Source of the DNA: a virus
Taxonomy: Duplodnaviria > Caudoviricetes
Strand: one strand, 5' to 3'
Length of the DNA stretch: 52,440 bases
Virus record (IMG/VR): IMGVR_UViG_3300032069_000016
Coordinates: 1-52,440 of that record
The translations under genes were made by a program, and so were the position numbers. The stretch's first letter is position 1. Each line of letters starts with the position of its first letter. The notes under the pieces were generated by a model that worked only from the letters and a program-made list of their open reading frames with translations, searched no databases and had not been told where the DNA came from. Shown here piece after piece: positions 37,377 to 38,060 of this stretch.

Positions 37377-37390
37377 CTATGTTTCATCGT
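37377..37390 (-). CDS. Exon 2 (14 nt) of a virion protein
   Basis: T+AC GAT GAA ACA TAG gives YDET*, matching the paralog ending FDET*. Confidence 0.8.
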
Positions 37391-37570
37391 CAATGTGTTG
37401 CCTCTCGTTGCCGAGAGTATCGGACTTTACCTTTATCCACTTGGGATACTCCGTGTCAAGTCTCTACGCCTTCTCCTTTCGGAGCTTGGTTCGGTATTGC
37501 CCCAGAGGGGTTTCACCGAGTTTACGGAGTTACACAACGGGGATTGCTCCCCAAAGGGGCTGATAAAACA
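37391..37570 (-). mobile_element. Group I intron, 180 nt, no ORF
   Basis: P3 ACTCCGT/ACGGAGT; P4 CTCGGT/ACCGAA; GTAGAGACTT and AAAGTCC (P7); GNRA-capped P2, P6 and P9; exon ends in U, intron ends in G. Confidence 0.88.
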
Positions 37571-38060
37571 ACCTGAAAGTCAGAGTTTCCGCACCTAATG
37601 CTCCTGCGACTGCCGCATCACTGACTACCGCCTGAAGTTCCACATAGTCCGAAATCTTACCCGTGCTTGGATTCGTAATTGAACCCGGAACGCTTAATGG
37701 ACTGGCCGATGTATAACTTTCCACATTCGTTGCACCCGTCAGTTCGTCTCCAGTTACTCCTTCTGTTCCCGTTGCCTGGACATAAGTAGCAACCGTTTTG
37801 CCTTTCAGAATTACCCCCGTCCAACCAATCGTCCCATCAGAAAAGAATCTGATGTTATTGATTGTTCCCGACGGACTTGTATCGGCATTCAGATATACGG
37901 TTTTCCAAAAGCCGTAGTTCGTCCCTGCTGGCGCTGGCTTGACTAACGGATTCGTAGTTCCTGGATTTGCCGTATCATCAGTATTGTGCCTCAAATTAGT
38001 AATCGTAGTTACATCTGGGGTTGTGCCTGTGCACTGCTTAATTGACACCGTTGCTGGCAT
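37571..38060 (-). CDS. Exon 1 of a 167-aa virion protein
   Basis: Paralogous to the C-terminus of 35104..36897 up to AETLTFR. Confidence 0.85.

Follow-up and report, generated by a model that had tools for sequence, protein, structure and literature searches.

Evidence for a compact group I intron near the stop codon of a phage tail-module gene

The intron locus and its predicted splice junction

The DNA analysed in this study, referred to as the window, is the whole of IMG/VR virus record IMGVR_UViG_3300032069_000016 (Duplodnaviria; Caudoviricetes), a phage genome of 52,440 base pairs (bp) with direct terminal repeats and a completeness rating of 100%. In a minus-strand gene of its tail module, 11 coding bases ahead of the stop codon, lies an element of 180 nucleotides (nt; 37570–37391, length counted by script). 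An earlier reading of the sequence, here called the original prediction, had proposed that this element is a minimal group I intron. The results presented below indicate that it is very probably a genuine group I intron without an open reading frame (ORF) of its own, in a complete 52.4-kb phage. The features of the locus are collected in Table 1.

Across the site, the minus strand reads ACT TTC AGG T, followed by the intron and then by AC GAT GAA ACA TAG. When the message is left unspliced, the frame continues past T37571 as TG TTT TAT CAG ... GTG TAA, and the resulting ORF (38060–37530) encodes a protein of 176 amino acids (aa) that ends in TFRLFYQPLWGAIPVV and a stop, i.e. in AETLTFRLFYQPLWGAIPVV. 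Joining U37571 to A37390 yields instead a 167-aa protein ending in AETLTFRYDET. This junction is unambiguous, in that no second pair of cut sites gives the same joined sequence. Guanine-cytosine (GC) content is 0.51 in the intron, 0.48 in exon 1 and 0.42 over the genome as a whole.

A protein search returned 222 relatives of the host protein at E ≤ 0.001, mostly of 163–170 aa; the figures that follow rest on the best 120 of the 222, one of which is the window's own protein. All of the 119 other listed homologs end in [YF]D[EV][TVIA], with YDET in 99, YDEV in 10, FDEV in four, FDET in two and single variants in the remaining four, which bears out the YDET terminus that the original prediction had derived from the junction. 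The spliced length of 167 aa is matched exactly by 71 of the 119, and the homologs align with the query up to about residue 163 (90–93% coverage). Homologs ending in the unspliced peptide, the observation that had been named in advance as speaking against splicing, were not seen among the 119. An intronless relative on a viral contig (L005) ends in ACT TTC AGA TAT GAC GAA ACT TAG. The likeness to a paralog in the same genome was confirmed by the end of its DNA, TTT GAC GAA ACT TAA, which encodes FDET and a stop (BLASTP E 1e-40, paralog residues 432–594). An alternative 3' site three bases downstream, which would produce a YET end, is disfavoured because all 119 listed homologs retain the Asp that it would delete; the lower rank originally given to this site was therefore appropriate.

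Table 1. Features of the intron-bearing gene, the predicted intron helices and the paralog (window positions; nucleotides are numbered as in the window)
Feature	Position	Strand	Details
5' exon of host gene	37571–38060	-	Codons 1–163 and first base (U37571) of codon 164; homologs cover query residues 1–163, ~93%
Group I intron, 180 nt, ORF-less, IC3-like core	37391–37570	-	RF00028 47.0 bits; covariation; model R1 180.4 bits
3' exon, 14 nt, AC GAT GAA ACA TAG	37377–37390	-	Completes Tyr164 and adds Asp-Glu-Thr-stop
In-frame UAA ending the unspliced frame	37530–37532	-	Intron nt 39–41; directly abuts the 5' strand of P3
P1 hairpin	37558–37573	-	Exon GGU and intron UG (37573–37569) with CAGCC (37562–37558); loop UUUUAU
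P10 guide strand UGUUUUAUC	37562–37570	-	Pairs with 3' exon 37388–37380, GAUGAAACA, the Asp-Glu-Thr codons
P2, UGGGGA/UCCCCG	37538–37553	-	GCAA tetraloop 37547–37544; all 7 pairs compensatory over 5 introns; RNAalifold
P3, CUCCGU/ACGGAG	37449–37529	-	Strands 37529–37524 and 37454–37449; six pairs compensatory
P7 pseudoknot, GAGACUU/AAGUCC	37422–37464	-	Strands 37464–37458 (A37463 bulged) and 37427–37422; 100% paired
P9.0, GAU/AUU; P9, CUCUCG-GCAA-CGAGAG; terminal G37391	37391–37421	-	P9.0 strands 37421–37419 and 37394–37392; P9 37417–37402; covariation
Uninterrupted paralog, 597-aa fibre-like protein	35104–36897	-	C-terminal 166 aa 46% identical to host protein; ends FDET and stop

Group I identity and covariation

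The original prediction had suggested a covariance-model search as a check, and this was performed with the Rfam group I intron model (RF00028). In a sensitive scan of positions 37200–37750 (551 nt), the complete model (1–253) matched 37401–37579 on the minus strand with 47.0 bits (E 6.9e-11), while the genome-wide search gave the intron an E-value of 1.6e-12. The curated gathering cut-off of RF00028 is 50 bits, which is a database threshold and not a biological criterion. The match is strong in statistical terms, but because the score is 3 bits below this cut-off, the default whole-window Rfam scan omits the intron and lists only a capsid-gene intron at 48716–49027 (62.8 bits). Single-sequence folding gave a z-score of -3.3, with 0 of 200 shuffles folding as well, and the minimum-energy structure includes P2, P3, P4, P5, P6a, P8 and P9 together with a long P10. 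The P3–P9 core, the P3/P7 pseudoknot, the P4–P6 domain and the junctions could all be placed in the intron.

Three conserved blocks of the window intron's core were combined into a degenerate pattern, which matched at least 120 stretches when scanned over metagenome contigs. Among the pattern matches listed, most were introns of transfer RNA (tRNA) genes for tRNA-Leu(UAA) and tRNA(CAU), as judged by their flanks, and four loci contained tiny introns in a protein gene, of 175 nt (L093), 178 nt (L129), 180 nt (L103) and 181 nt (L059). BLAST comparison with isolate phages identified this gene as the pelagiphage major capsid gene. The boundaries of these putative introns were set from the reading frames. 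The window intron, these four and five exon bases were combined in an alignment (A1) of 189 columns with a mean column identity of 79% and 86 invariant columns. The structure evaluated on A1 comprises 53 pairs, including the P7 pseudoknot and P9.0. Standard pairs were formed in 97.0% of the alignment cells, compared with 31.3–39.0% when the 3' partners were slid by 1–3 columns. Compensatory change was found in 29 of the 53 pairs, distributed over P1 (3/5), P2 (7/7), P3 (6/7), P6a (3/4), P7 (1/6, the rest being invariant), P8 (3/4), P9 (4/7) and P9.0 (2/3), and none of 500 shuffles reached any of the five measures used. RNAalifold, run blind on A1, recovered P1, P2, P3, P4, P5, P6a, P8 and P9. 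It also showed that the window intron has U:A at columns 130:146, where the remaining four have C:G, which gives the window intron a P8 of 5 bp and a P3 of 6 bp. A model built from the compact introns (R1) gave the window intron the score listed in Table 1.

The alignment further highlighted positions linked to group I catalysis. The U37571·G37560 wobble at the 5' splice site within P1 is U·G in all five aligned introns, and the counterpart of the terminal G37391 is G in all five. The P7 guanosine-site signature, G-[A bulge]-G:C, is invariant across the five introns, and binding of guanosine at this site is predicted from it. The full-length model match, the covariation and the RNAalifold consensus thus agree with the proposal of a 180-nt group I intron. 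We infer that the intron would splice, that it may do so independently of protein help and that it would form the tertiary contacts described below.

Helical organisation of the intron

The helices P2, P3, P4, P5, P6, P7, P8, P9, P9.0 and P10 named in the original prediction were all found at their proposed places. The P3 span encloses junction J3/4 (AAA), P4 (UCGGU/ACCGA), P5 (CCCC-UCU-GGGG), P6, P6a (CUCC-GAAA-GGAG) and the 5' strand of P7. The P7 span in turn encloses J7/3 (GAC, 37457–37455), the 3' strand of P3, P8 (UAUCC-CAAGU-GGAUA) and J8/7. As J7/3 has only 3 nt, P7.1 and P7.2 are absent. The last pair of P7 switches between U:A (two introns) and A:U (three introns), while P9.0 is paired in 100% of cases. 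P1 had been described as a weak GGU/GCC helix; those pairs exist, but P1 has 5 bp, and its extension into the intron covaries, with alignment columns 3–7 and 14–18 paired in 100% of cases. The periphery is minimal throughout, with 6 bp in P2, 4 bp in P5, 4 bp in P6a, 5 bp in P8 and 6 bp in P9, and this accounts for the small size of the intron. P2.1, P5abc, P7.1/7.2 and P9.1 are lacking, and loops L2 and L9 are both GCAA.

The long P10 of the original prediction was also recovered. It is a U/A-rich helix of 9 bp that joins the first nine bases of the intron to the last exon in the minimum-energy fold. The exon side of P10 lies in the Asp-Glu-Thr codons, where the protein end is most conserved; this agrees with the habit of such introns to occupy conserved sequence. 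A P10 of at least 9 bp arose in 234 of 20000 exon shuffles and with 198 of 20000 random 14-mers of the window, and its length is thus moderately unlikely by chance. We regard P10 as supportive rather than compelling evidence for the intron.

A separate observation concerns columns 56:87 of A1 (window positions 37520 and 37490), at a would-be extension of P4. The window intron and L059 have C/A there, and the other three introns have U·G. As C·A and U·G are potentially isosteric, these columns may represent a covarying wobble and not a mismatch.

Host protein and genomic surroundings

The host protein has no match to a Pfam or PHROG family. A natural homolog (P0002, 73% identical), which heads a 54-sequence alignment, was used to stand in for the spliced protein. 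Its AlphaFold model is a beta-sandwich with a mean pLDDT of 95.8 and a last strand at residues 160–166, and neither PDB nor BFVD yielded a structural match to this model with Foldseek at E ≤ 0.001. Given the extent of this strand, the junction (residues 163/164) falls in the middle of it, and in the model it is the final four residues that bring the strand to completion. We refer to the host as a tail-module beta-sandwich protein because its gene follows the tape-measure gene and because it is paralogous to the C-terminal part of the 597-aa protein.

The intron-bearing gene is located downstream of a tape-measure-like gene (39103–40656, phrog_4704) in the minus-strand tail module and upstream of the genes for the 597-aa fibre-like protein, a 690-aa laminin-G-domain protein and a 1205-aa protein. 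It is flanked by two small minus-strand ORFs of 140 aa (36894–37316) and 118 aa (38106–38462). Neither has a Pfam family or an endonuclease signature in Pfam or PHROGs; the 140-aa ORF alone has a weak PHROG match, of unknown function. A search for sequencing runs listed two, both of DNA and none of RNA. These runs, which inform on DNA and not on expression, showed no joints and no intronless form at the site; one contig of one run spans the intron region, and the other run yields three short unrelated pieces.

Subgroup and relationship to other introns

The pre-tRNA-Ile(CAU) intron of Azoarcus sp. BH72 has a length of 205 nt and belongs to subgroup IC3, which also includes the introns of tRNA-Leu(UAA) and tRNA(CAU) genes. 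To our knowledge, the Azoarcus intron is regarded as the smallest self-splicing group I intron. The window intron resembles it in having P1–P2 and P3–P9, GNRA loops on P2 and P9 and none of P2.1, P5abc, P7.1/7.2 and P9.1, a likeness that refers to the described layout. It differs in being 25 nt shorter, in lying in a phage protein gene and not in a tRNA anticodon loop, and in its loops: Azoarcus has GAAA loops with elaborate receptors, whereas the window intron has GCAA loops with plain C-G helices as presumed receptors. The original prediction, which called the intron shorter than Azoarcus, holds numerically, but the putative phage introns of 175–181 nt show that 180 nt is not a unique minimum. 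Published work describes IC3 introns as lacking P5(a-d) (PMC11835236), the Azoarcus intron as carrying tetraloops on P2 and P9 whose receptors are located in P8 and P5 (PMC2813881), a natural bias towards GYRA loops together with plain helices (PMC7913685) and a 67-nt degenerate fungal intron as the smallest with demonstrated group I activity (PMC3160393). The two GCAA loops of the window intron and its plain, C-G-rich P5 and P8 are in keeping with this GYRA bias.

A minimal periphery, GNRA loops on P2 and P9 and tRNA introns as nearest sequence relatives are the features of an IC3 intron, and all are present in the window intron. Among the loci compared by BLAST, its best neighbours are soil introns of high GC content that precede the 3' half of a tRNA(CAU) (L092, L113 and L032; 80–81% over 94–95 nt). 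R1 gave about 80–125 bits on tRNA-Leu and tRNA(CAU) introns, with match lengths that are not the true intron lengths since the model ends inside their longer P9 regions, and 32–53 bits on IA2 phage introns, with partial matches. The sequence features therefore suggest an intron of the Azoarcus or tRNA-type kind, which we label IC3-like because a single Rfam model covers the whole of group I. A phage protein gene is an atypical site for IC3; the site is not a structural criterion.

The first BLAST matches, to T7-like and Ralstonia phages, had pointed to subgroup IA2. This assignment was rejected, as J7/3 consists only of GAC, which leaves no room for P7.1/7.2, and a covarying P2 is present; T7-like IA2 introns have P7.1/P7.2 and lack P2 (PMC3428280). 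The IA2 introns of T7-like DNA polymerase genes (phage 13a gp5; PhiI/W31 of Bonocora and Shub 2004, cited in PMC3428280) are likewise phage protein-gene introns and share the J3/4-P4-P5-P4' stretch with the window intron (92.9% over 42 nt), but they are about 600 nt long, carry an HNH or other endonuclease ORF, possess P7.1/P7.2 and have no P2.

The pelagiphage capsid introns share with the window intron the helix plan, a 5-bp P1 with a 6-nt loop (CGU/AA, split at the splice site, with UUGCG), P9.0, the lack of an ORF, the length of 175–181 nt and the location in phage structural genes. They differ in GC content (0.35–0.39 vs 0.51), in a P2 of 9–10 bp, in a GAAA loop L9, in an internal-loop hairpin at P5 in place of a 4-bp helix, in the host gene and in P10, which by inspection is apparently about 3 bp vs 9 bp in the window intron. 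One of these loci (L103), on a 1.5-kb marine contig, contains a second compact intron of about 175 nt, so that two compact introns (L103:826-1005 and 1256-1440; Rfam 70.9 and 76.5 bits) lie in one capsid gene. In Pelagibacter phage HTVC120P (MH598807.1; L133:942-2406), the capsid gene is annotated as three separate coding sequences, and R1 gave 147 bits in one of the gaps. The introns of HTVC120P and L103 appear to be unannotated in the public record.

The major capsid gene of the studied phage (46878–49119, minus strand) also carries two group I introns, in the same genome, on the same strand and likewise in a structural gene. They are of a different lineage (R1 28.5 bits for the first) and measure about 314 and 887 nt by the exon coordinates of the initial reading. 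RF00028 matched at 48716–49027 with the score given above, and two lower-scoring matches, at 48253–48497 (28.6 bits) and 47648–47754 (30.7 bits), flank a 231-aa ORF at 47672–48367, which is carried by the second intron.

Pattern scans of contigs and the listed homologs yielded no close relative of the window intron and no homologous gene interrupted at this position. An exact 17-mer of P8-J8/7-P7 occurred at three loci on viral contigs, none with a group I match at E ≤ 0.001, and was attributed to chance. Three loci matching a P4'-P6-P7 pattern on viral contigs resembled tRNA-Leu-type introns by inspection and are not close relatives, and 107-nt pattern matches that had been taken for sister mini-introns are actually tRNA-Leu introns. 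A stricter two-gap core pattern matched one further viral contig (L012), which was rejected as a close relative with 67 bits for R1 and nothing in Rfam at E ≤ 0.001. At this locus (L012:3915-4209, minus strand, an IMG/VR contig), an 844-aa tape-measure-like ORF breaks off, sequence typical of tape-measure genes starts again about 290 nt further on, and the gap has a group I-like core. Five soil loci (L060:1496-1676, L044:2740-2920, L102:51-231, L092:3674-3856 and L113:79-275) present an IC3-type intron followed by a clean tRNA(CAU) 3' half with anticodon, T arm and acceptor end. No upstream tRNA 5' half was recognised at any of the five, and L092 also lacks the intron's own 5' part; ARAGORN called no tRNA in L060 or L113, the two loci scanned. 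Such loci may represent either split genes or half-genes that were duplicated at integration sites.

Proposed splicing pathway

By analogy with other group I introns, we infer a two-step pathway initiated by guanosine. The transcript would fold into a two-domain core, P4–P6 and P3–P9, with the P3/P7 pseudoknot, and P1 would present the U37571·G37560 wobble. The GCAA loops L2 and L9 would probably find their docking sites in P8 and P5, both plain C-G helices; in Azoarcus, the two GAAA loops dock on P8 and P5 as well. An external guanosine bound in P7 would attack the 5' splice site, after which G37391 would occupy the guanosine site, positioned by P9.0 and the long P10. Ligation of the 5' exon to the 14-nt last exon would then give the messenger RNA for the 167-aa beta-sandwich protein ending in TFRYDET.

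Weighing of alternative explanations

Several observations weigh against this account. The Rfam score falls short of the gathering cut-off, and the chance probability of P10 (about 1%) makes this helix only moderately improbable. In the register of P10, moreover, three bases at the junction stay unpaired, namely +1 and +2 of the exon and A10 of the guide, and an alternative hairpin (CCCC-UUU-GGGG) competes with P2. The structure evaluated on A1 was derived from the same five sequences, four of which are close kin, and this inflates the contrast with the controls. The intron is carried by one of the 120 listed proteins, the window's own, and it is without a close relative in the searches described above. 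Finally, translation of the unspliced message could run on for 13 codons, across P1 and P2 and as far as the edge of P3, and a ribosome following the polymerase would therefore unfold P1–P2 and cover P3–P4. Splicing must then outrun translation or depend on its timing; a coupling of translation and splicing has been discussed for a T4 intron (PMC11878797).

It was also considered whether the element resembles a group I intron by chance, or is another structured RNA or a terminator between a truncated gene and the next gene. Its absence from the default Rfam scan would agree with this. The E-value of the full-model match, the covariation in every variable helix and the 14 downstream nt, which encode the conserved terminus of the family in exactly the frame that splicing requires, argue strongly in the opposite direction, and no terminator-like site is present on the minus strand here. 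We consider this explanation effectively refuted by the Rfam match, the homolog ends and the covariation. A decayed or protein-dependent intron that does not self-splice, in a gene that makes only the 176-aa variant or is a pseudogene, is improbable. The score under the gathering cut-off, the extremely reduced periphery, the only three exon pairs in P1 and the lack of a homing endonuclease or maturase encoded in the intron would fit such decay. Against it, the core junctions and helices are all intact, 86 columns of A1 are invariant, the exons still join in precisely the frame that yields the conserved YDET end, four pelagiphage-type compact introns have a P1 built in the same way with 5 bp, and the genome is a complete phage record with an assembly depth of about 60 in the DNA sequencing run that is its likely source.

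The original prediction had also allowed for two isoforms. In that case splicing would be partial and both products would be used, the 167-aa YDET form and a 176-aa form in which LFYQPLWGAIPVV replaces the second half of the last beta-strand. Such a protein is possible from the open frame, which stops at the intron UAA after 13 codons and leaves it near full length, and the junction lies inside the last predicted strand (160–166), so that the difference between the two forms would affect a structural element. We found no support for a function of the unspliced form: an end resembling the unspliced tail occurs in none of the 119 other listed homologs, and a short read-through to an early intron stop is usual in phage introns and needs no function, as in T4 td, where a short read-through into the intron ends at an early stop. 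We therefore consider the use of both products unlikely, and the same low probability applies to the proposal that splicing efficiency sets the ratio of the YDET and LFYQPLWGAIPVV versions of the tail protein. If this were true, structurally mixed or condition-dependent tails would come from one gene, and translation through P1–P2 would tie the choice between the two ends to the passage of ribosomes. What was observed directly, namely the sequence, the match to the Rfam model, the covariation and the recovery of the conserved C-terminus, favours the ORF-less group I intron, which we regard as real, unusually small and otherwise ordinary.

Implications for phage introns

Group I introns in phage genes have long been known (reviewed in PMC3984707). 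In a partial literature search, with supplements outside it, no account of compact tRNA-type introns in phage structural genes was found. The portions of the literature on pelagiphage group I introns that it covered contain no description of 175–181-nt capsid introns. There was likewise no statement on the smallest full-core group I intron in the portions covered, and supplements may hold shorter ones. The window intron and the pelagiphage introns of 175–181 nt may tentatively be taken to reflect a spread, so far undescribed, of introns of the tRNA type (IC3) into structural genes of phages, a reading that we hold to be doubtful as yet, and still more probable than a role of splicing in setting the isoform ratio. 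If it is true, these introns would rank with the smallest natural group I ribozymes that have a full core.

The known workings of group I introns are unchanged by this finding. For annotation, it means that the gene is miscalled as 176 aa with a false C-terminus, that the correct product has 167 aa and that Rfam misses the intron by 3 bits. Together with the capsid-gene introns of 175–181 nt, the window intron indicates that compact introns of the tRNA type do occur in phage structural genes. Since its complete core fits into 180 nt and its periphery is reduced to plain helices and a pair of GCAA loops, the intron provides a convenient minimal subject for work on RNA folding and structure. The 14-nt last exon further illustrates how little downstream exon such an intron needs, the guide sequence of the intron pairing with the conserved Asp-Glu-Thr codons.

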